Positions 37,578 to 59,028 of a stretch of 64,000 nucleotides of DNA are shown in pieces. Positions within the stretch are counted from its first letter, which is position 1. Each line of letters opens with the position of its first letter. The notes under the pieces were generated by a model. The model was given only the letters and a program-made list of their open reading frames with translations. It did no database searches and was not told where the DNA came from. Source of the DNA: a virus; the IMG/VR virus record IMGVR_UViG_3300006224_000007, positions 13,151-77,150 of that record; one strand, given 5' to 3'. A program made the position numbers and the translations under genes.

Positions 37578-38026
37578 TGGAAAGACCTAGTTGGGATGAA
37601 TACTTCATAGACTTAGCAGTATTAGTAGCTAGTCGCTCTACTTGTCTTAGAAAACAACACGGCGCAATTATAGTGAAAGACAAGCAAATTCTTAGTACAG
37701 GATACAATGGTACTCCCTCTAAAATAACTCACTGTGAAACTTGTTTTAGAGAAGAGCATAATATTCCTCATGGAACTATGTATGAGCTTTGCAAATCTAC
37801 CCATGCTGAAGCTAATGCTATTGTACAAGCGGCCAAACATGGAGTTTCTATTAATGGTGCCGATATGTATATTACTGGTATTCCGTGCCTTATGTGTGCA
37901 AGACTTATAATCAATGCTGGTATCAAGAATATAATTACTGCGTTTGATGAAAACGAAGACCAGATGCAAGCATCATTAGAGCTTCTTAAAGAAGCCAAAC
38001 TACCCTTTAGGAGAGTGGACTTGTAG
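37577..38026 (+). CDS. dCMP deaminase
   Basis: RPSWDEYF, RSTC, TGYNG, HAEANA, PCLMC. Confidence 0.92.
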   Translation: MERPSWDEYFIDLAVLVASRSTCLRKQHGAIIVKDKQILSTGYNGTPSKITHCETCFREEHNIPHGTMYELCKSTHAEANAIVQAAKHGVSINGADMYITGIPCLMCARLIINAGIKNIITAFDENEDQMQASLELLKEAKLPFRRVDL

Positions 38027-38238
38027 TGGAATGTCCAAGATGCCATAAGACACACTTTAATACTTTTATAATTAGCCGATATAAAGAGAAGATGCCTGTT
38101 AATAAATGTTGTATTTGTGGGTATCTTTGGATAGATGACAAAGATTTAATTACACTAACAAAGGCTGAGTCGAAGAAAATGTTCATAGAAACTTTGAGGA
38201 ATATGGGGAAATATGACCAACGAAAAGACAGTAGTTAA
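38026..38238 (+). CDS. TFIIB-type Zn-ribbon protein
   Basis: CPRC...C..CG.LW.D. Confidence 0.55.
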   Translation: MECPRCHKTHFNTFIISRYKEKMPVNKCCICGYLWIDDKDLITLTKAESKKMFIETLRNMGKYDQRKDSS

Positions 38239-43455: not shown

Positions 43456-44376
43456 ATGACAAGTTATCTTACTACTGCTCTTGCAGCTACGGGTGGAACT
43501 AATGTAAGACTTTCTGAAGTGGTTCTTACCATTTACAGCAAAGATATTATGTTCCAGGCGCAGCCTGTACTAAGATTTGACCAGTTTGCTCAGGTTAAAA
43601 CCGACCTTTCCGCTACTCCTGGTAAACAAATTACCTTCTTCAAGTATAATAACCTAACTGCTGGTGGCCTGTTAACTGAAGGTACGCCTCTGGCTACTAA
43701 AGCTTTGGCGGGTTCGCAAGTATCTATTGCGGTGTATGAATACGGTAACGCTGTTGCTGTGTCTAATATGCTGTTAGTTACTGCTTTCACAGATGTTATG
43801 GCTGATACTGCTAAATTGCTTGGACAAGATTATGCAAAAGTCATCGACGCTTTGGCGAGAGATACGGTTGAAGCTGGTGCCGGTAGTACTGTATTTGCTA
43901 ATGACAGAGCTAATGCTGATGCTATTACATCTACAGACTATCTAACAATGGAAGAAGTTAAAGACGCTGTTGAAATTCTTGCTACAAATAACGCGCAAAA
44001 GATTAACAACGACCATTGGGTTATGTTTGTGCATCCACACCAAAGCCGTAATCTGCGTGATGATGCTGACTGGGTAACAGTTGGTAAACTAGACCCTCAA
44101 CGTTTGTACAATGGGGAAATAGGACGTATTGATGACGTTATCTTCGTGGAAACTACTCAAGTTAGTATAGATGCTAATGAGGCAGCTACTCCTGTTGATA
44201 CTTACTCTGCTATCATGATTGGCGACAATGCTTTCGGTAAAGCCGTAGCGTTGCCGGTTGAAATGCGTGATAATGGTGTTGTAGACTTCGGGCGTGAGCG
44301 TGACTTAGCATGGTATACTATTGTTGGATATGGTGTTCTTAATGCTGATAACATCGTTAAAGTCCAAACTGCTTAA
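43456..44376 (+). CDS. major capsid protein (HK97 fold, N4-gp56-like family)
   Basis: LTEG, EYGNAV, VHPHQ..NLR, GEIGR..DV.FVET, DFGR; position; biased codons. Confidence 0.88.
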   Translation: MTSYLTTALAATGGTNVRLSEVVLTIYSKDIMFQAQPVLRFDQFAQVKTDLSATPGKQITFFKYNNLTAGGLLTEGTPLATKALAGSQVSIAVYEYGNAVAVSNMLLVTAFTDVMADTAKLLGQDYAKVIDALARDTVEAGAGSTVFANDRANADAITSTDYLTMEEVKDAVEILATNNAQKINNDHWVMFVHPHQSRNLRDDADWVTVGKLDPQRLYNGEIGRIDDVIFVETTQVSIDANEAATPVDTYSAIMIGDNAFGKAVALPVEMRDNGVVDFGRERDLAWYTIVGYGVLNADNIVKVQTA

Positions 44377-44391
44377 TCCTAAGTTTTGGCA

Positions 44392-44420
44392 TTGACAAGA
44401 CGGGGAGTGGATGATATTAT
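44392..44420 (+). promoter_or_regulatory. sigma70/sigmaA-type promoter
   Basis: TTGACA-N17-TATTAT with extended -10 TG at 44412. Confidence 0.7.
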
Positions 44421-44446
44421 GATATATTGTCTACTCCCCTATTTTA
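44402..44446 (+). terminator. long hairpin after the capsid gene (terminator-like)
   Basis: GGGGAGTGGATGATAT pairs with ATATTGTCTACTCCCC (G-U allowed), then TATTTTA. Confidence 0.55.
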
Positions 44447-44459
44447 TAAAGGAGATAAA

Positions 44460-44777
44460 ATGAGTAAAATAAAAAAAGCCATCTTTGAAGATGAGGAAGC
44501 TCTCCAGAGCATTGAAGAATTGAAAGAGATTACAGAAGAGCCTAAAGAAATACCAGAAGAAGAGATTGAAAAACTATTTAGCTATGAGCCGATTCAAGTA
44601 GAAGAGGTTCAAACAATAGAAACCACTATAGAGGTCATCCCTCTTAGGGATGATAGGTTTTCTTTTGGTGGAACATGGTATTATTTGACAAAAGGTAAAC
44701 CTCAAAAAGTGCCTATTGCGGTACGAGATTTTCTTTTAATGAACAAACAAAACCCGAGAATTAAGGATATATGGTAA
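44460..44777 (+). CDS. head-associated hypothetical protein
   Basis: AAAGGAG RBS before ATG 44460; G..Y...KG...KVP..V..FL. Confidence 0.55.
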   Translation: MSKIKKAIFEDEEALQSIEELKEITEEPKEIPEEEIEKLFSYEPIQVEEVQTIETTIEVIPLRDDRFSFGGTWYYLTKGKPQKVPIAVRDFLLMNKQNPRIKDIW

Positions 44778-45235
44778 ACTATAATAACATATTTCTTGAA
44801 AAAACAGGACAGTTAGATGCAACAAATCCTTGGGATGATACTAAAATTGAGGGTTTTCTAAACAACTACTCTTTTATTATTTCAAAGGATTATGCGACTC
44901 CTTGGGCTGATTTTGCTACTGTTCCTGATAGATATCAATATCCTGTTGTGCTTTATTCCGCTATACAATTTTGGTGGTTTAAAGCTGGAGAATCAGCAAC
45001 CAAATTTGATGTTCAAGTTGGTGGTACAACAGGCCAAAAATCAACACAGATTTTCTATCGTGCATTGGAAATGATAGATTATCTTACAAAAGAGCTTGAA
45101 AAAATTGCTTCTGATATAATGTTGGAAGATTCATCTGCTGGTGATATAATTGTTGGAGACTTAGTAAAACGTAGTAAATTTACAGGATATCTTGTTCCAA
45201 GAGAAGATGACCCAGCAGGAGATTGGACTAGTTAA
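44771..45235 (+). CDS. head-tail adaptor (putative)
   Basis: position and size. Confidence 0.5.
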   Translation: MVNYNNIFLEKTGQLDATNPWDDTKIEGFLNNYSFIISKDYATPWADFATVPDRYQYPVVLYSAIQFWWFKAGESATKFDVQVGGTTGQKSTQIFYRALEMIDYLTKELEKIASDIMLEDSSAGDIIVGDLVKRSKFTGYLVPREDDPAGDWTS

Positions 45236-46023
45236 TGGGAGTAATAGCTGACACATTTGGTCAGATTATAAATGATTTACAAAATGCTACAGGTGCAGGA
45301 GCAGCTAGATTTGGTCGTGTATCAGGGCATGTATCTACATTTGGACCAAGAGGAATGTGGACAGATGAAAAAACTGGGAGAAGATATGGACCAGAGCGCG
45401 GAGGAATTGGTGCAGCCCTTTTACTTACAATGAGTAGAGAAGATTTTGCTGCGGCTACTAGAAGAGTTAGAGCATATGAACGAATACCATATCTTACTGG
45501 TACATTTGCTTTAAATAAAGTTGGTCACTATATAATTGGTCATGATGGACCTGTAAATAGAGCTTTTGATACAGAAAGTGCGCCAGGTGGTGAGCCGTGG
45601 CAAGAGCTTTCTGATTCAGAAAAAAGATGGAGAGCGCATGGTGGTGGAGGAATGGTTGAAGGACCAATTCTTGATGATGCGACTGACCAAAATCCTTCTG
45701 AAAAACTTAAAATGATAGCTATGAGTGAATCCCAAATGCTACAAGTAAATGTTACTGGGCAATATGCTAGATTATTAGTAAGTCCTGAACATCTTGAAGG
45801 TAAAGCAAGATTTAAATTTTTTGTTCATCAACTAGGAAGTGATAATGGTTGGGGAATGGGAATAGAAATTCCTGCAAGACCATTCTTCCCTGAAAGTCCA
45901 GACGATTTAAATTCTGCTGAAGTTGCAACTATAACACATTTAATCACAGAAGGTATTGACGAAGGTGTGGAAGAAAGGGCTGCGGAGAGAGGATTACGAT
46001 TGGCGAGAGGTCTTAGAGGATGA
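45235..46023 (+). CDS. virion morphogenesis / tail completion protein (Mu gpG-like)
   Basis: F.TE..PGG..W..L, HQLG, IPARPF. Confidence 0.65.
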   Translation: MGVIADTFGQIINDLQNATGAGAARFGRVSGHVSTFGPRGMWTDEKTGRRYGPERGGIGAALLLTMSREDFAAATRRVRAYERIPYLTGTFALNKVGHYIIGHDGPVNRAFDTESAPGGEPWQELSDSEKRWRAHGGGGMVEGPILDDATDQNPSEKLKMIAMSESQMLQVNVTGQYARLLVSPEHLEGKARFKFFVHQLGSDNGWGMGIEIPARPFFPESPDDLNSAEVATITHLITEGIDEGVEERAAERGLRLARGLRG

Positions 46024-46478
46024 TTACACTAATAGAAAATAAAGTTGTTGAGATTTTACAAGCGGCTACAATTGATGATGTATCTACTGACGTTGTTGTG
46101 GGAATTGATGACTTGTTGCTAGACTGGAATCAGTATGGAGAATATCCAAGAATTGTAGTAGCTTGTGAAGGTGTTGAGACTCAATATATACAAGTTGGCG
46201 CTGTTACAAAGGAATATGCGGTTAATATTTTCTTATTGTGCTATAATACTAACAAGGATGAATTAGTAAGGCAAAGAGATGTTATAGTCGATAGAATAGA
46301 GGTAGCCCTAAGAGCTAATCAAAGATTGGATAATTTAGCCGATAATAGTATAAGAGAAACTGTGTTTAGTTCCTCAATTCCAAGAGTTAGAGTTTCTAAG
46401 TCTGGAGTAAACGATAGTTACTATGCGGTTGCATGGATTGATTTTAGGGTAAATACTGATAGAATAATCGCTCTATAA
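46020..46478 (+). CDS. tail terminator protein (putative)
   Basis: directly upstream of tail tube; YP.I.V pattern. Confidence 0.6.
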   Translation: MITLIENKVVEILQAATIDDVSTDVVVGIDDLLLDWNQYGEYPRIVVACEGVETQYIQVGAVTKEYAVNIFLLCYNTNKDELVRQRDVIVDRIEVALRANQRLDNLADNSIRETVFSSSIPRVRVSKSGVNDSYYAVAWIDFRVNTDRIIAL

Positions 46479-46479
46479 T

Positions 46480-46500
46480 AAGGAAAGGGGGTGAATAACT
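46480..46500 (+). promoter_or_regulatory. 21 nt leader/RBS motif, copy 2
   Basis: identical to 43432-43452. Confidence 0.7.
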
Positions 46501-46503
46501 TAA

Positions 46504-47523
46504 ATGACAATTACAGGCTTAGTTGGACATTTAGGCGTAGGGGTACAAGTTCCTAGTAGTGGTGGTGTAGACGTTAATGGTATGGTTGCTGAAGCTGATT
46601 TGGGTGATGGTACTTATACACCTACTATTAGTGACTTCTTTGTTATCACAGAAGAAAGCTTTACTGCTGAAAACAACCCAATGGTTGCTGAAAATGAAAT
46701 TGGTAGAGGTCGTGACCGTACTGGTGCTGTAGCTGGTGGATATGCTATTGCTGGTGGTTTTGGTGGTTACGCTAGAACTACTGACTTAGGATTACTTTGC
46801 CAGATGGCATTAAGTAATGATGAGGCTGCTTGCGCTGCAAGCGGCTCTACTGGTATTTCTACTGTTGTTCCTACAGACTATCTTGATTGGTGGACTGTAG
46901 AGAAAAACGTTGGTGATACCTTATACCAATGGCTAGTAAATGCGAAGATGAACACGTTAACAATCTCTGTTAACCAAGGTGAAATCGCAACTTATACTAC
47001 TGATTGGGTAGTTTCTTTGGAAAAGAAAATTACATCTGGTGACGCTACTACTCCTACCTACGTTGATGATGACTTGTTAGCTTTCCACGGTGGCTTGCTT
47101 AAACTTGGTGGTACACAGTACAATAACATGGAATCAGTAGAAATTGCTATTGGTAATGGCCTTTCTAATGATGAGTATACGGTACACCCTTCTCGTTTCC
47201 TTAATAACGTAACTGAAGGAGCAAGAACATTTGACTTGAACTTCAACCAAGTATTCCAGGATGCTGATGACTACGCTAACTACACTTATGGTGCTGTTGG
47301 TCGTACAACTCCAGGATATGACTTGTATGAAGATGATGTTTATTTCTTGCTTATGAACGCGCAGACTAAAGCTGCGGCTACTGAGTATATTGAATTCTTC
47401 TTCCCCCGTGTGATGTTTGGTGGGTTGCCTGTGACCCTTGCATCTGGTAGAATTGTTGTAGCCAATACTGGTACAGTATTGTCTCCGACAGTCGGTAATA
47501 TAATTACCGTTTATTACAAGTAA
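46504..47523 (+). CDS. major tail tube protein
   Basis: beta-rich, strong RBS, precedes chaperone and tape measure; no sheath gene. Confidence 0.8.
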   Translation: MTITGLVGHLGVGVQVPSSGGVDVNGMVAEADLGDGTYTPTISDFFVITEESFTAENNPMVAENEIGRGRDRTGAVAGGYAIAGGFGGYARTTDLGLLCQMALSNDEAACAASGSTGISTVVPTDYLDWWTVEKNVGDTLYQWLVNAKMNTLTISVNQGEIATYTTDWVVSLEKKITSGDATTPTYVDDDLLAFHGGLLKLGGTQYNNMESVEIAIGNGLSNDEYTVHPSRFLNNVTEGARTFDLNFNQVFQDADDYANYTYGAVGRTTPGYDLYEDDVYFLLMNAQTKAAATEYIEFFFPRVMFGGLPVTLASGRIVVANTGTVLSPTVGNIITVYYK

Positions 47524-47548
47524 TAGTTAAGTAAAGGAGTAAAAGAAA

Positions 47549-47998
47549 ATGGCTCAAAGAATTTATGTACAAACTGTCCCTGAAATATTTCGAGTTTATA
47601 TACCTGAAGAAAAAGACTTACCAGAAGAAGACAAGACTTGGTTTGAGCATCGCAAAATGACTGAAGCTGATTACCAGAAATTTGTGGACTTAACTTCAAC
47701 AGTTAAGTTGGCAAACAAGAAAAAAGGCAAAGAGACTGATGACAAAGCTGAAGTTGATATGATGCTTGGTACTACAAGAGCATTCCTAATTAAGACTCTT
47801 ATCGTGAACTGGAATGTTATTGGTGAGGATGGCAAAGTATTAGCTGCTACATTAAACAATGTCAATATGTTATCACCTGAAATAGTTAAGATTTGGATTG
47901 ACGATATTTATGACAAGAACCCAATTCTTAAAGCGGAAGAGGAAGACGATGGAGATAAAGAGATTGTAGCTGTTGGAGAAAAATCCCCTTTAGCTTAA
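47549..47998 (+). CDS. tail assembly chaperone (gpG-like)
   Basis: between tube and tape measure; IVNWNV motif; slippery site before the stop. Confidence 0.8.
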   Translation: MAQRIYVQTVPEIFRVYIPEEKDLPEEDKTWFEHRKMTEADYQKFVDLTSTVKLANKKKGKETDDKAEVDMMLGTTRAFLIKTLIVNWNVIGEDGKVLAATLNNVNMLSPEIVKIWIDDIYDKNPILKAEEEDDGDKEIVAVGEKSPLA

Positions 47999-48276
47999 TC
48001 TTAGAAAATCAAGTAATAGCAATCTTAGAAGGAAGGCAGGAGATAGGAGAGCATCCACTCCTGCCTTCCGTTAGACAATGGTTAGACTGGAAGCTAACTA
48101 AAATTCTGCCTAGAGAGGGTGGAACTTTAAACCAAGACCCTGAATTCATGAGAGATTTAAGAATTATCTCTGGACTTGAAGCTGATTGGGAAAAAATTGG
48201 TAAGGCTAGGGCTGGTATTAGAAAACAGATACAAGAAGGAAAAGGTAAAGTAAAAGGTGGATACTTACTTAAATAA
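47549..48276 (+). CDS. frameshift-extended tail assembly chaperone (gpGT-like), -1 shift at 47986-47992
   Basis: C CCT TTA heptamer; -1 frame open for 95 codons to TAA 48274-48276, containing LPREGG..NQ.P. Confidence 0.75.
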
Positions 48277-48288
48277 GGAAGGTGCATC

Positions 48289-51200
48289 ATAGACCGAGAA
48301 CTTAGATTTGTAGTTTCTCTTAAAGATAACGCCTCACGGCAAGCAAGACAACTGGCTAGAAATCTTAGCCAGTTGAATACTACCCATGTTACAAACATTC
48401 GCCTTAACTTAATTGATAATGTAACTAGAAAACTAAAAGCCTTATATGCAGCTATATCTAAACAGGAAGGCGCTGTTTCTCTAGCGGCACTTACAGCAGG
48501 AGCAACAAATCTAGGTACTGCTCTTCAAGGCGCATTTAGTACTACTTCCAGTCAAAAATGGTATAACACTGTCTTTGGTTTTCTAAAAGGCGCAACAAAA
48601 TATGCCACCATATTTGGTGATGCATTAGTAGGTGGCTTTCTTGCCGCAGGTGCCGCAGCACAAACTCTTGTTACAGTAATCTCCGCTATCGCAACTAAAT
48701 GGATTGTTAGCATCAATAGTGAGATGGAACAATTCGAAGTTATGCTTCAAACTACTCTTCACAGCCTTACCGCTGCAAAAGAACAAATGGCAGACATTGT
48801 TCAATTTGCAAAAGAAACCCCTTATCAAATTAAAGAGATTACTGCTGCCGTTACAAAATTAGCGGCTTATAATATGCCTGTCGATAAATGGTTAAAACCA
48901 TTAGGCGATATGGCTTCTGCTTTTGGTCGTGATATTACTGATGCCGTAGAAGCTGCTGCTGACGCTATGACTGGTATGTTCCGTCGTGCGTTATCTTATG
49001 GTATTAAAATGGAACGTTCAGACTTTGACCAAGGTGGTAAATATGCTGGTATGACATATGCTGACGCTTTTATGATGGAAGTTCAAAAAAGATTCTCTGG
49101 AGGTATGGAACTTCAAGCTAAGACCTTTAAAGGAATCGTGTCTAATATCAAAGATACGTTCTATATTGCTTTTCAACAAGCTACTCAACCTGCGTTTGAG
49201 GGAATAAAAGGAATAGTAAGTGATGTTTATGATTGGCTAAATGCTAATTCTGGTCAAATTCAGCGCTATTTCAAAATTATAAATGATACTGTGATGGAGT
49301 TATTAGATACTGCTAAAGAGGTATTTAAATATTTCCAAAAAGATATTCTTCCAAGCCTTGTTCAATTATTTGAAGTAACTATGGAAGTTTGGTCTACCTT
49401 TAAAAAAGTTATGGGAACATTGATAACTGCTTTTGTTGTTCCTGCTCTTACTGTTTTAGGAAAACTTCTAGAGTTATTTGTTGACCTTATTGATTATGCA
49501 AAAATGCTCCTAGTTATCTACATGGGATACAGAGCAGCAGTTCTAGTTTTAAAACTCTTAGGCGTTCAAATGGTAAGTCTTGCTGCTAAAACGGCTTCTG
49601 CTAATGGAGCAGCAACTTTACTTTCTACTACCTTAAAAACTGTAACAACGCGAGTATTGCTGTTAGCGGCTGCTCTTGGTATTATGTGGATAGCAGAAAA
49701 ATTCATAAAAACTAGAGATGCTATTAAAGAACTTGGTGGTTCTTTTGATAAGATTGCTGGTGGAGCAGAGAAAGTTAAAGGATATCTTGAAGAGCTAGGA
49801 AAAGCAAACAACTTTAGCACAGATGAAATGGCTGAAGCTGCTAATGTGGCTAAAGAATATGGTAACAATATGCAAAACGCTCTTGAAATTGGTGCTAAGG
49901 CTGCTGGAGCTTCTAATCTTAATATGCAGCTTTCTGATACTATAGAACTAATAGGACAAGTATCAGATGCCTTTATTCATGAGGGAGATTCTGCTGAATT
50001 AATGGCTAAAAAAACTACTGAGGCTGCTGAGTTACTTAAATATCTAAAAGATAATGCAGAAGAGCTTGGAATTACATTTGAAGATGTTCAAGCTAATTTT
50101 GAACGCTATCCTGATGTTCTTGAAGCTTACGGAGACAACATAGAAGGTCTTGGAATAGCGATTAAAAAATTTACTGCTGCCGCTTGGTTAGAAGAATCAA
50201 CTGCTGATTTGAATGTTCTATTTAAAATGCTTCAAAACTTAATGGCACCAACAAAAGAGATGCTATTAAATTATCCAACTGATACTTGGATTTCCCGTTC
50301 TACAGCAGATTTAAAAACTCTTTCAAAACAATTAGAAACTTCAGATGCAGAACTATCTGCTAGGTATTTAGCTAGTGCTGAAACTATAGAAGAAATTATG
50401 AATACCTATGGTATTATTGCTGGACAAGCAGATAAAGCACAAGCAGCAGCCAAAAGCACAGTAGGTATGACTGAAGAATATGCTGCTAGACTTGAAGAAG
50501 AAATAGAAAAAAGACGCTTAACTGGTGCTGATGCAGTAGCATCGGCGGCTGATAAAGAACTGCAAGCTGCTGAAGCAAGAGAAAGGTCTGCTAAGGCAAT
50601 AGAAGCTGCTAACAAAACAGGTGTGTTGACACCGTTGGCTACTAATCAACCTGCTGGAGCAGTTTCTAAAGTTTCAGTGGTTGATTGGGTTGTAAACCAC
50701 CCTGTAGCTGGTGTGTTAGGAGTAATAGCTGCTACTATTGCTATAGCAAAAGTACTTAATAAAGGTTTTTCTAAACTTGGTCAAATAGGAATAAGAGCTA
50801 TTAAAGTTCAAACTGCTGCTGCTGGTACAAGACTAGCTCGCTTTGGGTTGAACTATGCTACTAGAAATGCAAGTGCTACTGCATTGGGAATGGCTCCTGA
50901 AGAAGCTGCCGCAGGTAGAACATGGTTAGCAAGAAGATTACTTAAAATGGAAGACAAACTTATATATAGAACTCTTCCTTCAAATCTATTAGATAGAATT
51001 GAAACTGCTACTCAAGAGCAAGTAAAAATATTAAATGCAGCAAGAAATAAAAGAGTTGACCAATTAACTAAGGAATTAGATGCTGCTCTACAAAAAAGTG
51101 GTAGAAAAGCTGGTCAAAAAGCAAGAACTTTAAGTTCTCAAATTAGAGTAACTAATGCTCAATTTGATGATGCTATAAGAGATATTAGAAGAAGCTATGG

Positions 51201-54200
51201 AGATTTAGCCAAAGAAGTTGCTAATAAACGAGTACCTACTTCTATGCGTCAATTAGCACTTCAAATTGTTGATTTTACTAATAATCTTGAGTTAGCAGCA
51301 AAATCAACAGCTAGAACAGCACGAACTACTGCTACAGCCGCTAGAAGTCTTTCTAAATCAGGAAAAGGAATAATGGGAGCCTTATTCTCTGTTCCTCTAT
51401 TTGGACCTGGGCTTAAAAAAATTTCTAGAAGTATTTTTGGTGCTGGTAGAGTAGCTCCTAGAGTAGCTGGTGGTGGTGCGGGTGTATCTTCTGTTGCGGC
51501 ATCTGTTAATGCTGTTCAAACAGGAAATGTTGTAAAGCGTCTTGAATCCCAATGGCTTCGTAAACAATTTTCTAGATTAACTGGCACTATTTTAGGTCCG
51601 TTCAAAAAAAGTGTTTCTAGTGGTCTTGCTGCTGAAGCTGTTTATAAACCTATAGTTGAAGCTATTGATTCACAAACAGCTTCTACTGTAAATGCCTTCG
51701 AAAGATTTGGAAAAACTATTCCAGATGAAATAGGAAAACGTCTTACTGAACTTGGTGGAACAACTACTAAAGAGTTTGAAACTATTTTTCAAGAACTTTT
51801 CGCAGGTAGAAATATAAGAACTGTCTCATTAGCAGGAATTACTGAGCCTGAAGCTATTACTCATATTAACAAAGTAACAAAAGCATTTATGGATGCTATT
51901 ATTGAAATGCCTAAAACTGGACGATATGCTTTGACTGGAGAAGAAGGTTTATCTGCTTGGCTACATGAATTTATGCATACTGCTCAAGAAGGAAAAGGTA
52001 GAACAGCACAAGGAATTGTAGCTAAAACAGCTAATGAAGCACAATTCTTAAAAGAACTAGATGCATGGCAAAAAGCTGCTGATGCTTTAAAAGCTATGGG
52101 AGTCGATGTTAAAAATAATACTGCTTTTATTAAAACTGCAACTGAGTCTCTAGAAACTTATGCTAAAAAAGCTGGTCTTTCTACTGATATTCTAGATAGA
52201 GCAATAAAAACTGTTGCTGATAGACTTCCAGTAGCCGTAGAAAATATTTCAAAAGCTGCTACTGAAACAGCAACTAAAGCTACTACTGTTACAAGAGCAA
52301 CTGCTCCTGGAAGAATAACAATTGACTCATATGCTGGTAAAGCCTTAGCACAAACTGAAAAAGCTGCTGTTAAAGCTTCTAATAAAAGCGCATTGATTTT
52401 AGGAAAACAACTTGGTAAACTTGTAGGAAAAGGAATTGGTGGAGTTACAACCGCAACAATGGTTACTGACCTTCTTGGTACTCTTGTGGCACAAGAAACA
52501 GTTATGAGAAAATCAACTGGTCAAGAAATTTCTATGAAGCCACTAGAATATCAAAAGCAAATGTCTGAAGCTTTATTAGGTCCAGGAGAGGCTTTAAATG
52601 ATACTCTTAAAGGACTAGCGGGAGCTATAGGAACCGTATTTACCGCTGGACAAGTTGGTGGTACTAAGGAATTGGCAGGAGCTATAAAAGATGTACCTGA
52701 AGACTTAGGTAAAGCTGCACAGGCTTTGATAGATTCTGTTCAAAGCAACAAAATGATGATGGATTATCTATATTCTCATGGCATGGACGTAGAAATGTAT
52801 AATAAAGCTACAGCAGAAATAATTGCTGGTACAGGCAAAAGTAAAGAAGTAGATATGCTTTATGATAAGTTAGTAGATTATTCGAAAGCAGAACCATCAC
52901 TTATGGCTGCTGCTAAAGCTAACGAATTAGCTGCTAAAACTAATAAACTAGCTGCTGAAGGCAAGGTTCCTGGTATTAAGTTTGATGCAGAAACAATGGC
53001 TAGTGGTGCTGGAAATCCATTTATGCAAATGGCTATTCAAGGAATCCCCGAAGCTGCTGAAAAGGCTATGGAAGAAGTAGTTCCTGTTTTTGAACAAGGG
53101 GCAAAAACTGCTGGTCAAGCCATAGCTAATGGAGTAAAGGAAGGAATGGATAGTGTAGATATAAGTTCTGAAGGCGTAGACCAAATGTTAGAAGGTCTTG
53201 TAACCAAAGGTTCTTATGGTTTAGCAGATATTCAAGCTGGACTTAAAAAAATGGATGATAGATTACAACATCTTGAAAAGACAGAAATCCCATTGACTAC
53301 TAAAAAAGTTCAAGAGCTTGAAGAAATGCTTAGTAGCTTGGATAGACAAATTAAACGTAATGAACTTGATTTAGCCAAGTTTGGTCAAGAAATGACTAAT
53401 ATTGCAAGTACCTTTGATTTGGCTATTGCTATAAATGAATTGGCTCTTGTCTCTGATTCTGCTCAAGCAGCCAGAAAAGAAATAGCTAGACTTAATGTTG
53501 TTCTTGCTCAACAAGAAATTGAACTGGCTAGTCTAGAAACTCGTCTGCAAGCTATTCAAACAGAATTTGATGAAGTAAGCAATACTATTAATAAAGCTCA
53601 AGAGTCTCTAGATAAATTCCTTAATGCTCCAGTAGAAGGAGAAGGAGCATATCTTGATAGGATTTATGAAATTGATAAACAATTAAGTGAGCTTGAACTT
53701 AAAAAGATAAATCTACAACCTACCTATGATTTATTCTCAAAAGCAGGAATGCTTGATAGTGATGCCTTCAAGAAATGGGCTGCTGAAACTGGCTGGGCTA
53801 TGATAGAAAATCAAATGGCAGCATTAGAAAATGAGAAAACTTTAGAGGAAGCTAAACGTAGAAATGCTACAATGGATATTGAACATTTCAAAGAAAAATC
53901 TCAGCGTGAAGAAGAGTTTACTACTAAACAAATTGAAGACGGCGTTAATGCTGCTATGGCAGTTATAGAAGCTAATAAACCTAGACTTGAACAGTTAGAA
54001 AAAGAACTAGAAAAACAACAATCTCTTGTTGAGAAAAAACAACAAGAAATTGAAGCTACTAATAATGCTATTGCTGCTCATGAAAGAGAACTTACATTAC
54101 TTGAAAGAAAAGTTGAATTAGCTAATCAAGATGCTCAAGCAGCTAAGGAAAAAATGGAAGCTAACAAAAAAATCTTTGACTTAGAAGGCGCTATTACTGA

Positions 54201-54894
54201 TATGAAGATGATGCAAACAGCAGAAGCTATGGCTCAAGGTTTAATTAGCACAGAGGTTATGGAAAGTCTTGTTACTCAATACAATGCCTTAGCAGATAAA
54301 ACATCTGATATTACAAGAACACAAACAGGATTGAACTATAGAGTTCAAGCAATAACCTTTGATAAGGAATACTGGGATAAAAGATTAGCTACAGCCCAAG
54401 CTGAGCAAGGAACATTAATAGACAACATTAATAGATTAGTCCAAGCTGCTGAAGATATGATTACTGGAGTAAATGCAGACAGTGAAGGATTTGAAACTGC
54501 CTTAGCAAATGTATTTGGAGCAGATATTAAAGGGGTTGTAGGCCAAATGTCATTGAATTTAGCAGCGATGGCTAGAGGAAAAGAAGGCGCAACTACGGCA
54601 TTTCCAAGCTATCAATTTGGTGGCATTGAATTAGCACAAGAACAATTAGCACTACTACATGGTCCAGAAGCTATTATTCCCTTGCATGGTGGCGCGGTTC
54701 CTGTTAAAATATATGGTGCTGCAACTCAAGGAGAATCTGGTCCAGTCACAATCAATCAAACTACTGTTGAAGTTGGTAGTATTGTTGTGCGTGATGATAA
54801 TGACTTAGAAGAAATTAAACAAGCTATCCTAGATTTACGTCAGGGTAACACTACTTTCTTCTCTAGAGCATCTCAATATTCAGAAAGATTTTAA
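48289..54894 (+). CDS. tape measure protein (~2200 aa)
   Basis: Ala-rich helical; FAKETPY, LGDMASA, QAKTFKG..SNIKD; C-terminal LLHGPEAIIP; frame open upstream of 48373 to an ATA at 48289 behind an RBS. Confidence 0.9.
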   Translation: MDRELRFVVSLKDNASRQARQLARNLSQLNTTHVTNIRLNLIDNVTRKLKALYAAISKQEGAVSLAALTAGATNLGTALQGAFSTTSSQKWYNTVFGFLKGATKYATIFGDALVGGFLAAGAAAQTLVTVISAIATKWIVSINSEMEQFEVMLQTTLHSLTAAKEQMADIVQFAKETPYQIKEITAAVTKLAAYNMPVDKWLKPLGDMASAFGRDITDAVEAAADAMTGMFRRALSYGIKMERSDFDQGGKYAGMTYADAFMMEVQKRFSGGMELQAKTFKGIVSNIKDTFYIAFQQATQPAFEGIKGIVSDVYDWLNANSGQIQRYFKIINDTVMELLDTAKEVFKYFQKDILPSLVQLFEVTMEVWSTFKKVMGTLITAFVVPALTVLGKLLELFVDLIDYAKMLLVIYMGYRAAVLVLKLLGVQMVSLAAKTASANGAATLLSTTLKTVTTRVLLLAAALGIMWIAEKFIKTRDAIKELGGSFDKIAGGAEKVKGYLEELGKANNFSTDEMAEAANVAKEYGNNMQNALEIGAKAAGASNLNMQLSDTIELIGQVSDAFIHEGDSAELMAKKTTEAAELLKYLKDNAEELGITFEDVQANFERYPDVLEAYGDNIEGLGIAIKKFTAAAWLEESTADLNVLFKMLQNLMAPTKEMLLNYPTDTWISRSTADLKTLSKQLETSDAELSARYLASAETIEEIMNTYGIIAGQADKAQAAAKSTVGMTEEYAARLEEEIEKRRLTGADAVASAADKELQAAEARERSAKAIEAANKTGVLTPLATNQPAGAVSKVSVVDWVVNHPVAGVLGVIAATIAIAKVLNKGFSKLGQIGIRAIKVQTAAAGTRLARFGLNYATRNASATALGMAPEEAAAGRTWLARRLLKMEDKLIYRTLPSNLLDRIETATQEQVKILNAARNKRVDQLTKELDAALQKSGRKAGQKARTLSSQIRVTNAQFDDAIRDIRRSYGDLAKEVANKRVPTSMRQLALQIVDFTNNLELAAKSTARTARTTATAARSLSKSGKGIMGALFSVPLFGPGLKKISRSIFGAGRVAPRVAGGGAGVSSVAASVNAVQTGNVVKRLESQWLRKQFSRLTGTILGPFKKSVSSGLAAEAVYKPIVEAIDSQTASTVNAFERFGKTIPDEIGKRLTELGGTTTKEFETIFQELFAGRNIRTVSLAGITEPEAITHINKVTKAFMDAIIEMPKTGRYALTGEEGLSAWLHEFMHTAQEGKGRTAQGIVAKTANEAQFLKELDAWQKAADALKAMGVDVKNNTAFIKTATESLETYAKKAGLSTDILDRAIKTVADRLPVAVENISKAATETATKATTVTRATAPGRITIDSYAGKALAQTEKAAVKASNKSALILGKQLGKLVGKGIGGVTTATMVTDLLGTLVAQETVMRKSTGQEISMKPLEYQKQMSEALLGPGEALNDTLKGLAGAIGTVFTAGQVGGTKELAGAIKDVPEDLGKAAQALIDSVQSNKMMMDYLYSHGMDVEMYNKATAEIIAGTGKSKEVDMLYDKLVDYSKAEPSLMAAAKANELAAKTNKLAAEGKVPGIKFDAETMASGAGNPFMQMAIQGIPEAAEKAMEEVVPVFEQGAKTAGQAIANGVKEGMDSVDISSEGVDQMLEGLVTKGSYGLADIQAGLKKMDDRLQHLEKTEIPLTTKKVQELEEMLSSLDRQIKRNELDLAKFGQEMTNIASTFDLAIAINELALVSDSAQAARKEIARLNVVLAQQEIELASLETRLQAIQTEFDEVSNTINKAQESLDKFLNAPVEGEGAYLDRIYEIDKQLSELELKKINLQPTYDLFSKAGMLDSDAFKKWAAETGWAMIENQMAALENEKTLEEAKRRNATMDIEHFKEKSQREEEFTTKQIEDGVNAAMAVIEANKPRLEQLEKELEKQQSLVEKKQQEIEATNNAIAAHERELTLLERKVELANQDAQAAKEKMEANKKIFDLEGAITDMKMMQTAEAMAQGLISTEVMESLVTQYNALADKTSDITRTQTGLNYRVQAITFDKEYWDKRLATAQAEQGTLIDNINRLVQAAEDMITGVNADSEGFETALANVFGADIKGVVGQMSLNLAAMARGKEGATTAFPSYQFGGIELAQEQLALLHGPEAIIPLHGGAVPVKIYGAATQGESGPVTINQTTVEVGSIVVRDDNDLEEIKQAILDLRQGNTTFFSRASQYSERF

Positions 54895-54904
54895 GGAGGG
54901 ATAA

Positions 54905-55258
54905 ATGTCAGATATTAATGGTTATGAAATTCATGTAACAGATGAAACACTTCCCCACCTTGAATCTACTTGGACTGAAGTTGAAGTAACATCTGATAAT
55001 AAAACTTACAAGTTTAAACGCGAGACTAATAAAAGTTTAGTGTTCGATATATCTGGTTTTATTTCTTTGAGTACTTATGCTTTAACTAGAACTGAAGCAG
55101 AAGGTTTAAATGATGACTTAAATGATACGCCTTCTGGTACTTATACAGATGGATTTGGAACTACCCGTAGTGTTCTTGTTGATAGTTGGAGCATTAAACC
55201 TGTAGCTGCTCTTAATAAATATACCTTTACTATGACTCTAAGAATTCCGGTGACTTAA
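54905..55258 (+). CDS. distal tail protein (putative)
   Basis: small beta protein right after tape measure; AAGGAGG RBS. Confidence 0.6.
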   Translation: MSDINGYEIHVTDETLPHLESTWTEVEVTSDNKTYKFKRETNKSLVFDISGFISLSTYALTRTEAEGLNDDLNDTPSGTYTDGFGTTRSVLVDSWSIKPVAALNKYTFTMTLRIPVT

Positions 55259-56736
55259 TGCCTATTGGAGATGAAGATTATAGCAACAATTTACCCGCTC
55301 TAGGAAGATTTAAGCCTGGAAGTGTTGGCTCTGGAGAAGACACAGGAGCATTAGATGTTACTCTGTCTACTAATTTAGCTGGAGAACCAATTCGTTTTAC
55401 ACTTAATGAATCTCTTGATAATATTGTTTCTACAGGAACTTTAACTATGCTTAATGCCACTATTGGTGATGAGGGTGAGCAACAAGTTGGAGTTATGGGA
55501 GAAGTAAAAACCGAAGAAGATGAAGCTAAATGGGGAACATTATATGATTCTGCTCCTATAGAACCTAATCAATTAGCTACTGTAACCGAAAGTGGTGGTG
55601 GATTAGGAACTTGTACTACTTATTGGCGAGTAGTTGGAGTTACTTCATATCTTGATGAAAACGATGTTCCATACTATGAAGTACAACTTGAAGGATATGG
55701 TCAAATCGCTATTGATACTAAGTTTGACCCAAGTAAAATTGTTACAGAGCCTAGTATGGCATGGTTTTATCTTAAAGATTACTATGATTCTCTAGTAGAA
55801 AAATCACAAGCTGATTTAGATAATGATGGTTATATTTCAGAAGAAGAGGTTACAGATGCGACTGAACAAGAACCTGCCTTAGCCACAATTTTTGCTGGAG
55901 CAAGATATATAGTAGATGAACCAACAGATTATTTGACTCCTTTTTTAAATCAATTAAATGAAGCAGGATTAGAATGTGGTGCTGGAGGAACGCCAGGTAT
56001 CAGTGTAGTTCCTCTTGAAAGTAAAATTCAAAAAGGTGAAAGTTGTTGGCAAGTAATTGAAGATATTCTTGGTCTTAATGGATATATGGCTAGATTCAAA
56101 AGAGATAAAAAAATGGTTATGATTGATATAACTGGAACTGAAGGTTGGTCAGCTATGCCAACAGCAAAAGCAGATGATGGAACACCTATTTATGACCAGG
56201 AGGATATTGATAATCCCCCTCTACAAGATACAGATATAGGAGATTTTGGTAGAGGTTTACAATTAAGCTATTCAAAAGAAGGTGTCTTTAGCCAAGCTGT
56301 TGTATCGGGGATGGTTGGAAAAGTTGGTGAGGATGGATTATGGGTAGTTGATGGTGAAGACCCTAAAGAAGTAATTGTAACATCATCAGCAGGATTAAAC
56401 ATTCTTAATGGTCAAGTAGTAGAATTAGCTGTTCAAGTTGAAGAGAGATATCATTTACAATCTACTGATGAACTAACAAAGTTTGGTCAAAAAGAGCTTT
56501 ATAAGTCAGTAATAGGAGCTAGAAGTGCTACCTATGATAGTGAGTCTGTACCATTAGCAGTAGAAGTAGGAATGAGCATGACTGGTTCTTCAAAACTTGG
56601 TGGAGCTACTAATATTTTTATTACAGCCTTGAATAGAACTACAGATGCTCAACAAAATAAAATAACTACTGGATTATCTGGTACTCGTATTACTGGTGGT
56701 GCTGGTGGAGAAGAAAATACTATGGGATGGGAATAA
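55258..56736 (+). CDS. tail tip / baseplate hub protein (putative)
   Basis: position; GESCW.VI..IL pattern; acidic; EF-hand-like loop. Confidence 0.6.
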   Translation: MPIGDEDYSNNLPALGRFKPGSVGSGEDTGALDVTLSTNLAGEPIRFTLNESLDNIVSTGTLTMLNATIGDEGEQQVGVMGEVKTEEDEAKWGTLYDSAPIEPNQLATVTESGGGLGTCTTYWRVVGVTSYLDENDVPYYEVQLEGYGQIAIDTKFDPSKIVTEPSMAWFYLKDYYDSLVEKSQADLDNDGYISEEEVTDATEQEPALATIFAGARYIVDEPTDYLTPFLNQLNEAGLECGAGGTPGISVVPLESKIQKGESCWQVIEDILGLNGYMARFKRDKKMVMIDITGTEGWSAMPTAKADDGTPIYDQEDIDNPPLQDTDIGDFGRGLQLSYSKEGVFSQAVVSGMVGKVGEDGLWVVDGEDPKEVIVTSSAGLNILNGQVVELAVQVEERYHLQSTDELTKFGQKELYKSVIGARSATYDSESVPLAVEVGMSMTGSSKLGGATNIFITALNRTTDAQQNKITTGLSGTRITGGAGGEENTMGWE

Positions 56737-57242
56737 TGACTAAGAAAATAAATCTAAAAGCCTATACTTATCCAGCACGGAATTTAAATTATAGTGCTGG
56801 TGATATACTAAAAAAAATGCGTCAAAATCAAGAACTTGCTAGAATTAAACAAGCAAATGGATTAGTAACTCTTGGTGTAATGGAAGCAACACAAGTTGAA
56901 GGTGGTTATGGATGGGCTATAAGTGACTATATTCCATTTGCCTTTGCTTATGTTTCTAGACCAATATTTACTTCAGGATTAGATGGAACGGCTGGAATAG
57001 ATTTTAGTGCGCTTGGAGACAATATGTATACTCAAGCACTTCCAACATCATTATCTGAGCTAACAGCAGAAGATTATCAACCGGCGATTTTTATACCTAG
57101 AGTAATTCATTGGCATATTGAAGATAAAATCTTCTTTGGATGCTATCTTTTAGTATGTCAAGTAAACTCAGAGTGTACTGAAACCGATAAAGTAGTAAGA
57201 ATACATTATAGATTCGAAGGAAAAGGATATGTAGCCTCTTAG
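56727..57242 (+). CDS. tail tip protein (putative)
   Basis: position; I.F...Y...P.FT.G pattern. Confidence 0.45.
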   Translation: MGIMTKKINLKAYTYPARNLNYSAGDILKKMRQNQELARIKQANGLVTLGVMEATQVEGGYGWAISDYIPFAFAYVSRPIFTSGLDGTAGIDFSALGDNMYTQALPTSLSELTAEDYQPAIFIPRVIHWHIEDKIFFGCYLLVCQVNSECTETDKVVRIHYRFEGKGYVAS

Positions 57243-57258
57243 TAGGAAAGGATAAAAC

Positions 57259-59028
57259 ATGACAGTAACAACAACAGATTATTTTGGATTTACAGCAGTT
57301 CATAATGCAGTTCCCTCTACTAATGATTGGGCAGCTACTTATTGGAATTGGATTGCCGCCGATGAAATTTTATATGGGCTTGTAGCACATACACATACTG
57401 GAGCAGCAGCAGTACAAAATCCTACAGGAACATTGTCATTAAGTACGGCAACAACAGGAGGATATTTACCGGCCAGTACAACTTATTATATCGCAATAAC
57501 TTATGTTGATGCTCTTACAAGAGAAACGGCAGCTTCAGATGTTGTAAGCATAGCAACAGGAGCAGGAATAACAACTCCTACTACACCTACTATAAATGAT
57601 GATGCTACTCCTACTGATATTCAAACTTGTCCTGGTGGTCTTACTGGTGGAGATTATTGGTATAAAATCTCTTACACAAAAGATGGGGGAGAATCCTTAC
57701 CAAGCGCACCAGTATATGTATCAATTCCTACTGATGATACTTATGAATGTACTATTCATTTTCAATCTCTTAATGAAGTTGCTAATGGTGCAGATGCAAT
57801 ATTTGTTTACAGAAAAATTGGAAACTCTGGTAGCTATGTAAAACTAGCTGAAATTACTGCTGGAGCTACAAATTCTTATACTGATGATAACACTGGAGTA
57901 CCTACTTGTGATAAGGCTCCTGTAACTGCTAGTACGATTAGTTCTTTCAATACAATTACAATAAATTGGGCTGCACTTGATTATACTAGTGCAGAAAAAG
58001 TAAGAATTTATGGAACTACAACTAGTGGAACTTATCCAACTAATTCTCTTATTGCTGAAGTAGATATGAATGATGCTACTCCTGTAGAAGAATATGAATG
58101 GACTGGAGTAGCAAGAACATTAGGAAAACCCCCAGCAGTTAGCCATTGTTATTCTAGCCCTGGAAAGATTACCCTAACTGCTGGCGCAGAAATAGAAGGT
58201 AACTTACCTTGGGCAAATCTTCCTTCTGATTTTAGTTGGCAAGCACCTGTAGCTAATTCTGCGGCATTACCTGATGGAATCGCAGGAGAAGCCAGAGTAG
58301 TTCTGGATGAAGATGCTATCTATATTTGGGATGATGATTTAGCTACTCCTGCATGGACTAAGGTATCAGGCTTAGTTGATTTTGAAGAGCTTGAAATTGA
58401 GGCTTTTGGAGTTATTAACTGGGATAGCATGACTACTGTAGGAATTGCCAATACTCATTTACTCATTGTTATACCAGAAGAAGCAGAATCTTCTGACAAC
58501 AACAATAAAATGGTAGGTCTATTTGTTTGGCGCGAAGATTGGGCCACTCCTGCATGGCAACGTCTTAATTATTGTTTGCCATTTGAATATACAGCAATTG
58601 GTAAAACTCCATTTAGTACTGATGAACCAGGAGTTATGTGGGTAAGATATAGTGAATCAGAAGATACTTATTATCTTGCCTATAATAATCAGGATGGGTC
58701 TGCTACATGGACGTTTCCACTGGTTATAAGTAATCAAGCTGTTGGTTCATTAAATGATGAAATAGGATATTTTGGTTGGTGGGAAACTGGAATGGATGAT
58801 ATAACACCTAACTATAGTTATGGTGCTATAAGATTTAACTGGGATGATAAAGCATTTCAATATTATGATGATACTATTGCTACTCCTGCTTGGGTTGATG
58901 GACCAGGAGTAGTAAAAACTGGAGAAACTGTGGCTGATGTTGCTGAAGATGCTACTCCTACTCCTGAGCAGCTAAAAATAAATGAGATACTAGAAGTGCT
59001 TAGAACTTCTGGTCTTATTGAAACCTAA
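57259..59028 (+). CDS. tail fibre / minor structural protein with Fn3-like repeats
   Basis: HTHTG, two GG.L...Y.Y.I.Y....E..S units, W-D hairpin repeats, C-terminal KINEIL..LR..GLI. Confidence 0.65.
   Translation: MTVTTTDYFGFTAVHNAVPSTNDWAATYWNWIAADEILYGLVAHTHTGAAAVQNPTGTLSLSTATTGGYLPASTTYYIAITYVDALTRETAASDVVSIATGAGITTPTTPTINDDATPTDIQTCPGGLTGGDYWYKISYTKDGGESLPSAPVYVSIPTDDTYECTIHFQSLNEVANGADAIFVYRKIGNSGSYVKLAEITAGATNSYTDDNTGVPTCDKAPVTASTISSFNTITINWAALDYTSAEKVRIYGTTTSGTYPTNSLIAEVDMNDATPVEEYEWTGVARTLGKPPAVSHCYSSPGKITLTAGAEIEGNLPWANLPSDFSWQAPVANSAALPDGIAGEARVVLDEDAIYIWDDDLATPAWTKVSGLVDFEELEIEAFGVINWDSMTTVGIANTHLLIVIPEEAESSDNNNKMVGLFVWREDWATPAWQRLNYCLPFEYTAIGKTPFSTDEPGVMWVRYSESEDTYYLAYNNQDGSATWTFPLVISNQAVGSLNDEIGYFGWWETGMDDITPNYSYGAIRFNWDDKAFQYYDDTIATPAWVDGPGVVKTGETVADVAEDATPTPEQLKINEILEVLRTSGLIET

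Follow-up and report, generated by a model that had tools for sequence, protein, structure and literature searches.

To our knowledge, mycobacteriophages are the only phages in which virion glycosylation has been proven experimentally, and there it shields the particles from antibodies. In the literature available to us we found no description of a short acceptor motif for phage virion glycosylation, or of how the glycosyltransferases (GTs) choose their sites. Phage-encoded GTs glycosylate the capsid and the tail tube in mycobacteriophages, with virion glycosylation by phage GTs described for Che8, Corndog and Myrna (Freeman et al. 2023, Cell Host Microbe 31:1216, as reported in PMC12363180 and PMC10877033). 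As far as these reports describe that system, the phage analyzed here resembles it in being a tailed phage with GTs of its own, known here from the genes. Unlike the mycobacteriophages, it is an uncultured phage, unrelated to them, of 35% GC and with a probably Gram-positive host. Besides the GTs it encodes FkbM-type methyltransferases, and the proposed cytoplasmic targets are surface proteins of the virion, including the capsid. Mycobacteriophages glycosylate their tail tube; that of the present phage is free of the tripeptide described below, for which a fibre is the main carrier.

Three systems outside phages offer further points of comparison. The general O-glycosylation system of Bacteroidetes recognizes the motif D-(S/T)-(A/I/L/V/M/T) and transfers the glycan en bloc in the periplasm. 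The tripeptide Ala-Thr-Pro (ATP) studied here is like that motif in consisting of three residues around a Ser/Thr, in having an acidic residue upstream and in being reused on many unrelated proteins. However, the Bacteroidetes motif has its Asp directly before the Ser/Thr and an aliphatic residue at +1, whereas here the acidic residue lies one to three positions before the Ala, and does so in the close clade only; with Ala before the Thr and Pro after it at every site, ATP falls outside the Bacteroidetes definition. GtfA/GtfB carries out cytoplasmic, GT4-type glycosylation of serine-rich repeat adhesins. The likeness lies in a GT4-family enzyme for which action on Ser/Thr is proposed while the substrate is still in the cytoplasm, ahead of its delivery, and Thr-rich wall-anchored proteins are also encoded in the stretch of DNA analyzed here. 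The GtfA/GtfB substrates are long low-complexity repeats, while those considered here are isolated tripeptides in folded domains, and neither a GtfB-like partner nor accessory Sec genes were identified. Eukaryotic mucin-type O-glycosylation, carried out by GT27 enzymes, favors Pro at +1/+3 and small residues at −1. A Thr with Ala on one side and Pro on the other, in extended and probably exposed segments, recalls this preference as a resemblance only, the mucin-type system belonging to other enzymes, another compartment and another domain of life.

ATP sites in the window

We counted ATP in the non-overlapping set of 106 plus-strand ORFs of the window, that is, the whole 64,000-nt stretch of DNA that was analyzed. 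It occurs exactly nine times: six times in a fibre, twice in the capsid protein and once in a head-tail region protein (“adaptor”). The other 103 ORFs, with the portal and tape measure among them, contain none, and the remaining 13 kb of the 77-kb record, which is 66% complete, adds no further copy. The original prediction had placed all nine correctly and had noticed none in replication or metabolic proteins.

The fibre, a distal tail/fibre-like protein of 589 aa (57259–59028, plus strand) with 44 homologues, carries ATP at residues 116, 273, 362, 429, 541 and 565 (nt 57604, 58075, 58342, 58543, 58879 and 58951). These six copies compare with 0.45 expected, a count reached in 0 of 20,000 shuffles, and any tripeptide at all reached six or more copies in just 0.6% of the fibre shuffles. 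Non-fibre proteins of the window have three copies against 3.03 expected, so the excess in the window is a property of the fibre; window-wide, nine copies against 3.5 expected place ATP at rank 68 among tripeptides, which is not significant. Measured against composition within the window, the anticipated enrichment is present in the fibre and does not extend across the virion.

Codon usage at the nine sites is mixed for Ala (GCT seven times, GCG and GCC once each) and uniform for Thr-Pro (ACT-CCT at all nine), the latter a point overlooked previously. The varying Ala codons had been taken as a sign of protein-level selection; they do vary, but the argument is weak because this genome always encodes the Thr-Pro of these sites in one way. 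A motif acting at the DNA or RNA level was considered and rejected as the cause, since the codon pairs found at the same sites in relatives are diverse and the nucleotide pattern is seen in frame only. The acidic residue reported upstream is likewise a local feature: one lies within three positions before the Ala at 9/9 sites in the window (background about 0.35), but in distant clades the frequency is 29% versus a 27% background.

An AF2 model of the fibre with a pLDDT of 88 (a single-sequence run gave 37 and was of no use) places all six sites in coil, four in hairpin loops and two in linkers, the placement being the secondary structure of the model and exposure being read from secondary structure only. 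The location in hairpin turns that had been proposed from sequence finds support in this model. Three of the six copies are ATPAW inside repeated W/Y-D...W hairpins. A simple internal repeat fits just these three, while the remaining sites and those of other clades stand in different contexts, and it was rejected as the source of the enrichment. Foldseek searches with the fibre returned Ig-like domain matches alone, to phage capsid-decoration and tail proteins. No cultured relative of the fibre was found, and a megablast search against cultured phages gave no match.

The major capsid protein (MCP), HK97-like and of the N4-gp56 family (43456–44376, plus strand), has ATP at residues 53 (nt 43612) and 244 (nt 44185). 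Its profile match to phrog_1357 (residues 12–305, 2e-56) covers the whole length, as expected of an N4-gp56 protein; PF25209/PF13252 matches and the JGI source name of its homologues agree with this family, and its sole PDB relative is a weak match. The adaptor, a protein of 154 aa without a family match (44771–45235, plus strand), contains DYATPW at residue 42 (nt 44894). In the tail tube protein (46504–47523, plus strand; Phage_tube_2, 2e-15) we find the related form GDATTPTYV, as noted before, and no ATP, which is also absent from the four tail tube homologues examined.

Conservation among relatives

The copies in capsid and adaptor become significant solely through their relatives. Six MCP homologues contain 11 ATP and six adaptor homologues contain seven. 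ATP is kept at capsid site 244 in MCPs as distant as about 58% identity, at site 53 only in those of at least 78% identity, and at neither site in about 68 outgroup MCPs. YATPW is retained in adaptor homologues of 50–68% identity, with a second ATPxW site gained in two relatives.

Among fibres the pattern is much stronger. The close clade has 233 ATP where 17.4 are expected; its ATP sites are kept while the flanks differ, and additional sites arise at new positions. Codons at these sites differ among relatives and the tripeptide is retained, and this conservation in the face of synonymous variation argues that A-T-P is under selection at the protein level.

For a broader view we used a distant set of 127 fibre representatives with a mutual identity of at most 50%. 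Here ATP is 2.9-fold enriched and is the sole enriched tripeptide of the forms xTP and ATx, so that the enrichment is specific for the Ala before the Thr and for the Pro after it, and ASP is enriched 2.3-fold. ATP ranks fourth by z-score, and the three tripeptides above it likely reflect single conserved positions. As a multi-copy tripeptide it ranks first, occupying 22 recurrent alignment columns (at least three sequences each, out of 72 ATP columns in total) versus 13 for the runner-up, and these columns lie in linkers as well as in Ig-like and unrelated C-terminal domains. Counts per fibre are zero-inflated, and the counts in the N-terminal and in the non-homologous C-terminal parts are correlated after correction for composition (rho 0.50, p 7e-9). 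The fibre tree requires at least 11 changes between rich and zero states, and status is phylogenetically clustered. IMG/VR was scanned for clade 2 and for its sisters with zero ATP, with no match, and the sequences in alignments A2 and A8 had diverged too far for patterns to be scanned. Bias in amino-acid composition or GC as the difference between rich and ATP-free fibres was rejected: the expected counts are 0.44 and 0.50, respectively, and rich fibres do not exceed the others in GARP content.

Concerted presence and absence in capsid and fibre

On 13 contigs, capsid and fibre agree in status, with ATP present in the two or absent from the two, the proteins being paired by the identical size of their “longest contig” alone and not by sequence. 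For example, a fibre with nine ATP (P0075) and an MCP with GATPV (P0300) share the size 91,587, and a fibre and an MCP with zero ATP each (P0304 and P0281) share 42,863. Other Logan contigs with ATP-rich fibres measure 89,444 bp (P0104, of clade 2 like that of P0075) and 40,178 bp (P0303), and one of 71,662 bp has the ATP-free sister P0055. A further pair, fibre P0051 and MCP P0397, also has zero ATP in both proteins; it is matched on a 30,405-bp NCBI contig and is nested within the ATP clade. One nested relative thus seems to have lost ATP from capsid and fibre alike. A metagenome scan with P0051 recovered relatives at 43–46% identity and none closer.

The glycosyltransferase operon and its distribution

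The proposed writer, a GT/methyltransferase operon, proved to be real, and its genes, all on the plus strand, lie directly upstream of the terminase and structural genes. It begins with a GT4-family GT (30151–31179; PF20706, PF13692, PF00534), followed by a GT2-family GT (31176–32624) that has two GT2 matches and is partly conserved in the relative G001. The GTs were confirmed in both G000 and G001. The variable part of the operon (32621–36183) has no counterpart in G001, where other genes sit. It encodes a 196-aa ORF without assignment, three FkbM-type methyltransferases (33159–33833, 33793–34482 and 34946–35740), an ORF with a weak Methyltransf_23 signal (34473–34949) and a cytidylyltransferase-like ORF (35740–36183). 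Adjoining the operon is a 300-aa protein (36183–37085) that is 53–55% identical in G001/G002 and gives a weak signal for a GT4 N-terminal domain (PF13439, E 0.01, below the cut-off).

Orthologues of the GT4 form a group of 44–100% identity, after which there is a gap to at most 32%. This group is confined to the ATP-bearing clade, and its distribution coincides with that of capsids with ATP, to a lower limit of about 59% identity. Contigs of the same size link it 12 times to ATP-bearing MCPs or fibres, or 13 times if a fibre link at 111,176 bp is included. In five complete outgroup genomes there is neither a GT1/GT2 nor an excess of ATP. Beyond the clade, the presence of GTs in general is not predictive of ATP. 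G039, G041, G042 and the complete G031 have GTs and fibres that are ATP-free or ATP-poor, and G032–G034 (42–69% complete) have ATP-bearing fibres with no GT1/GT2 detected. In the independent phage G037, two unrelated fibre-like proteins are ATP-rich (6 versus 0.66 expected and 4 versus 0.32) and there is a seven-hit GT2 cluster, with no BLAST homologue of any operon protein of the window. None of the ATP-rich clade-2 contigs is among the GT4 matches. One NCBI-sourced GT4, P0352, lies on a 15,746-bp contig of the assembly that has the 30,405-bp contig and could belong to that ATP-free phage; scans of the genome collection with P0051 and P0352 gave no match. The association between GT4 and ATP is a single phylogenetic event, and the link of ATP to the operon is correlative only.

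Possible readers of the tag

On these patterns of occurrence, we regard A-T-P as a real, selected tag. Its joint gain and loss across unrelated virion proteins suggests that it is probably read by something, perhaps the phage's own sugar-adding enzymes. In the explanation we prefer, selection at the protein level would maintain A-T-P, or more loosely A-[T/S]-P, as a short tag that the fibre presents in surface loops and linkers, the capsid at two sites, and a head-tail connector protein as well, and a trans-acting factor would read it during virion assembly in the cytoplasm. The Thr would be the acceptor for an O-linked modification, the writer would be the glycan operon of the late region with its clade-specific GT4 in first place, and the methyltransferases and the cytidylyltransferase would elaborate the glycan. 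What we observe is that the tripeptide is enriched and conserved, that it lies in loops, and that unrelated proteins gain and lose it jointly. The explanation goes further by three inferred steps: the tag carries a modification, a glycan is what is attached, and the operon described above attaches it. We hold the explanation as a whole only tentatively. That ATP functions as a sequon is plausible, with our confidence falling short of even. As a hydroxyl-bearing motif it is enriched over composition in the fibre, its close clade, the distant set and the MCP and adaptor homologues, and not in the proteome of the window as a whole. The same division applies to the acceptor tag of the original prediction: selection, loop location, occurrence in three unrelated virion proteins and concerted behavior are in its favor, but the virion-wide excess in the window is missing, and the tail tube, although abundant and exposed, has no ATP. 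It is rather doubtful that ATP is a true minimal O-glycosylation sequon with which cytoplasmic phage GTs coat fibre, capsid and connector, its sites being gained and lost with the writer.

If this last reading is true, virion glycosylation in phages would have its first defined acceptor motif, one widespread in uncultured siphoviruses of anaerobic and wetland metagenomes. With a tag of three residues recognizable in the sequence itself, glycosylated virions could be predicted from metagenomes, and the glyco-engineering of phage particles or of recombinant proteins in the bacterial cytoplasm would gain a portable acceptor. Such a tag would also account for one layer of fibre and capsid evolution, in which surface sites are gained and lost jointly. 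Even without glycosylation, concerted status across unrelated virion proteins points to a new trans-acting reader.

Alternatively, ATP could be a structural cap between a loop and the following strand or helix, inherited and duplicated with the fold, with coincidental copies in capsid and adaptor and no reader. In the AF2 model each fibre ATP ends exactly at the start of the next strand or helix, and the three ATPAW hairpins, the reappearance of ATPxW in distant clades, the phylogenetic clustering and the lack of excess outside the fibre are all consistent with such a cap, as is the conservation of Pro-Gly and Pro-Val in MCPs, where the Thr alone varies. However, the zero-ATP clades retain the W-D-D...W hairpin, with a shorter loop in the consensus, and therefore ATP is not needed for the fold. 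The spread of the 22 recurrent columns over linkers, Ig-like and unrelated C-terminal domains, the correlation between non-homologous halves of the fibre, the concerted loss from fibre and capsid on one contig, and the richness of both unrelated G037 fibres also argue against a cap, which we consider unlikely.

About as unlikely, in our estimation, is a reader other than the operon, such as a host cytoplasmic modifying enzyme or an interaction with the host surface or host defence, the operon then modifying host wall polymers or the phage's Thr-rich secreted proteins. ATP-rich fibres occur in several deep lineages without a common GT, and operon content is exchanged between close relatives while ATP sites are unchanged. 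The GT4 orthologues carry the source annotation “involved in cell wall biosynthesis”, and the cytidylyltransferase suggests a CDP-activated precursor, in line with wall polymers. More obvious O-glycosylation substrates are also encoded in the window, namely two mucin-like proteins rich in Thr, of which one has a lipobox and the other combines a signal peptide with an xPxTG-like anchor. Against this stand the position of the operon immediately upstream of the terminase and structural genes, the coincidence of GT4 with ATP-bearing capsids, and the outgroup genomes that lack both GT and ATP. Moreover, no further modifying enzyme was found in the 77-kb record (66% complete); prolyl hydroxylase and Ser/Thr kinase were rejected as readers because neither is encoded there. 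As for a post-hoc pattern, one of 8,000 tripeptides enriched by chance and conserved in homologues by inheritance, the window-wide rank of 68 would be compatible with it, and a Bonferroni correction over all protein-by-tripeptide pairs leaves the single-window fibre result borderline. We nevertheless find it very improbable, and largely refuted already: the enrichment is reproduced in independent data sets, including the 127 representatives, ATP leads as a multi-copy and multi-column motif with specific residues on either side of the Thr, and it has been gained independently in a separate clade that has zero-ATP sisters.

The Ala-Thr-Pro motif in the window

The Ala-Thr-Pro (ATP) motif is real: it is under protein-level selection, lies in loops, and comes and goes in concert across virion proteins unrelated to one another. 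It is found in a siphovirus-type phage on a 77-kb linear IMG/VR viral contig with a completeness estimate of 66%, of which the window (bases 13151–77150; GC about 35%) carries nearly all genes on the + strand. The terminase large subunit (TerL, 38213–40741), portal (40757–42346), major capsid protein (MCP, 43456–44376), tail tube (46504–47523) and a tape-measure-sized ORF of 2173 aa (48373–54894) are present, with the 589-aa "fibre" (57259–59028) among the distal tail genes. The glycan operon (30151–37085) sits immediately upstream of the terminase and comprises a GT4 glycosyltransferase (30151–31179), a GT2, three methyltransferases of the FkbM type, another, weak methyltransferase and a cytidylyltransferase-like protein; the 300-aa protein that follows has a sub-threshold GT4 N-domain signal. 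We found no close cultured phage, the top MCP identities being about 45% (Bacillus phage BCD7, the Streptomyces BRock group and a Bacteroides phage), and no cultured relative of the fibre.

All nine ATP copies of the original prediction lie exactly where it placed them: the fibre has six, the MCP two, and the adaptor, a 154-aa ORF (44771–45235), one. ATP is absent from the remaining 103 ORFs of the window and from the other 13 kb of the record; TerL, portal, tube, tape measure and the 492-aa protein have none. Window-wide, nine copies compare with 3.5 expected (rank 68 among tripeptides), and the sole outlier is the fibre (6 versus 0.45 expected, 0/20,000 shuffles), where any tripeptide reaches six copies in just 0.6% of shuffles. 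Without the fibre, three copies are observed versus 3.03 expected, thus virion-wide enrichment in the window is not by itself significant. The acidic residue originally noted upstream of ATP is present within three positions at all nine sites, but is clade-specific rather than a general rule (close clade, 68% against a background of 31%; distant clades, 29% against 27%).

Conservation and gain of ATP in fibre relatives

We count the motif as real because the fibre relatives reproduce its enrichment. In 41 aligned homologues, with identities down to 38%, there are 2–8 ATP each versus 0.2–0.5 expected, and the close clade sums to 233 versus 17.4. A273-T274-P275 is conserved in at least 90% of the homologues while its flanks vary, and new sites arise, such as S[TAP]PATPT in place of the window phage's ITTPTTPT. 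An exhaustive search showed the N-terminal ~320 residues to be common to 585 relatives. Among 127 distant representatives (pairwise identity at most 50%), ATP is enriched 2.9-fold, fourth among all tripeptides, the three above it being likely single conserved positions. It is the only enriched member of the xTP and ATx families; in the AxP family ASP comes second, at 2.3-fold. ATP is also the commonest tripeptide with at least three copies per protein, followed by GGG, and occupies 22 recurrent alignment columns versus 13 for the next tripeptide.

Counts of ATP are zero-inflated (57 zeros versus 35 expected), and those of the conserved N-terminal and non-homologous C-terminal parts of the fibres are correlated after composition correction (rho 0.50, p 7e-9). 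The tree of the N-terminal region requires at least 11 changes between ATP-rich and zero states. One well-supported clade of five has 3–10 ATP each and its ten sisters 0–1, with full-length homology and differences at the ATP spots specifically. Composition was rejected as the cause of the rich and zero states, as it fails to separate the two groups.

Codon usage in relatives places selection on the peptide, since many different codon pairs encode the same ATP sites and the ACT-CCT-type pattern occurs in frame only. A nucleotide motif, which the window alone would suggest, was rejected on the same grounds. The variation of the Ala codon, originally taken as a sign of protein-level selection, is a weak argument, since Thr-Pro in the window is ACT-CCT at 9/9 sites (for example 57607–57612) against a background of about 0.3 for this codon pair. 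This uniformity is a peculiarity of the window genome.

Concerted ATP status across virion proteins

ATP at MCP site 53 is confined to MCPs of at least 78% identity, others having ANPG, VSPG or KQPG, while site 244 retains it down to about 58%, below which AAPV, SAPV or TAPV is found. From these alignments, the Thr looks specific to the clade, and Pro-Gly and Pro-Val seem to be there for structural reasons. Loci with MCPs of at least 71% identity have ATP observed/expected ratios of 2–20; in some 68 outgroup loci (MCP 43–52% identical) ATP occurs once at the MCP sites, and its locus-wide count equals expectation. Adaptor homologues of 50–68% identity retain YATPW, with an additional ATPxW gained in two of them.

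Fibres and MCPs were paired by identical size in bp of the "longest contig", not by contig sequence, and none of the 13 pairs is discordant in ATP status. On eleven contigs both the MCP and the fibre bear ATP. The 852-aa fibre P0051, nested in the ATP clade beside P0036 (4 ATP), has all its ATP sites replaced; its 30,405-bp NCBI contig also carries MCP P0397, from the sole ATP-free MCP cluster within its identity range. In a second clade, fibre P0075 (9 ATP) and MCP P0300 (GATPV) share 91,587 bp, and the zero-ATP fibre P0304 and MCP P0281 share 42,863 bp. In G037, an independent IMG/VR phage (136.6 kb, 96% complete), two fibre-like proteins with undetectable mutual similarity (L109:2206–4602 and L113:3427–4818) are both ATP-rich (6 versus 0.66 and 4 versus 0.32 expected), in GGGATPT-type contexts. 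The concordance of fibre and MCP, together with these two dissimilar rich fibres, points to a genome-level factor.

Structural setting and candidate readers of the motif

In an AlphaFold model of the fibre (135-sequence alignment, pLDDT 88) all six ATP sites are in coil. Residues 116–118 lie in the linker preceding an Ig-like domain and 565–567 in the linker preceding the C-terminal helix; the other four (273–275, 362–364, 429–431 and 541–543) lie in beta-hairpin loops ending at the start of the next strand, in agreement with the predicted hairpin-turn placement. A fold search with the model returned Ig-like phage domains only. That ATP serves as a structural cap seems to us somewhat unlikely: zero-ATP clades keep the W-D-D...W hairpin, with a shorter loop in the consensus, so the fold does not need ATP, which has been added to it.

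Our leading hypothesis, correlative and tentatively held, is that ATP is an O-glycosylation sequon for the glycan operon. There is precedent for virion glycosylation by enzymes of the phage itself (Freeman 2023, as cited in PMC12363180 and PMC10877033). The GT4 orthologue group is sharply bounded (44–100% identity, then 32% or less), and its contigs coincide with ATP-bearing MCP or fibre contigs in thirteen cases, with MCP identity down to 59% (twelve links plus the fibre link of a 111,176-bp contig, matched by equal contig sizes in bp). Five complete outgroup genomes have neither GT1 nor GT2 and show no ATP excess. Against the operon as writer, the GT4–ATP association is a single evolutionary event, and in other fibre clades some GT-bearing genomes (G039, G041, G042 and the complete G031) have fibres with little or no ATP. 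ATP-bearing fibres also occur in records without a detected GT, which are only 42–69% complete, and the NCBI-sourced GT4 P0352 could belong to the ATP-free phage of the 30,405-bp contig. The tail tube, a glycosylation target in mycobacteriophages (Freeman 2023, through the same two papers), lacks ATP in the window phage.

It is unlikely, in our judgement, that the tag is read by something else while the operon does another job. In its favour and against the operon as writer, BLAST finds no homologue of the operon's proteins in G037, where seven GT2 matches cluster at 46.7–56 kb, and no clade-2 contig is among the GT4 matches. Two Thr-rich secreted proteins of the window are possible alternative substrates of the operon, more conventional than the ATP sites, which also counts against the operon writing ATP. 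However, the 77-kb record (66% complete) contains no prolyl hydroxylase or kinase, and the GT4 group tracks ATP-bearing MCPs and fibres, as the sequon hypothesis would have it.

Additional features of the phage and its relatives

Between its conserved ends the glycan operon acts as an exchangeable cassette: the relative G001/G002 keeps GT4, part of GT2 and the 300-aa protein, with the methyltransferase cassette replaced, and this retention counts for the operon as writer. In G001 the intervening region (L011:1333–8639) holds different genes, without FkbM and with another GT2. A DUF7768/nucleoside 2-deoxyribosyltransferase-like protein (29629–30012) lies just upstream of GT4, and a dCMP/cytidine deaminase (37577–38026) between operon and terminase; together they hint at nucleotide or DNA modification. 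In the 842-aa TerL the main profile match, phrog_2, spans residues 381–811 only; weaker terminase-family matches touch residues 97–153 of the N-terminal extension of ~380 residues.

Both Thr-rich proteins are mucin-like, lie in the early region and are the source of TTT, the strongest tripeptide anomaly of the window. One (5125–6138) carries a signal peptide and TTTTT[ES]-type repeats with 57 overlapping TTT; at its C-terminus, FPFTG precedes a hydrophobic stretch and a KK tail, as in a sortase/LPXTG-like anchor. The other (6696–7403) combines a lipobox (LVGC) with a membrane segment at the C-terminus. By these sequence features the pair suggests a Gram-positive host.

One fibre relative, on an 18,376-bp ENA contig (L129), comes from a "fermentation metagenome", a hint at the habitat of the group. 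Another, in an 18-kb relative (L094, G029:C1:2519–4156, minus strand), is read through one in-frame TAA, for which sequencing error, pseudogene formation and recoding are possible causes.
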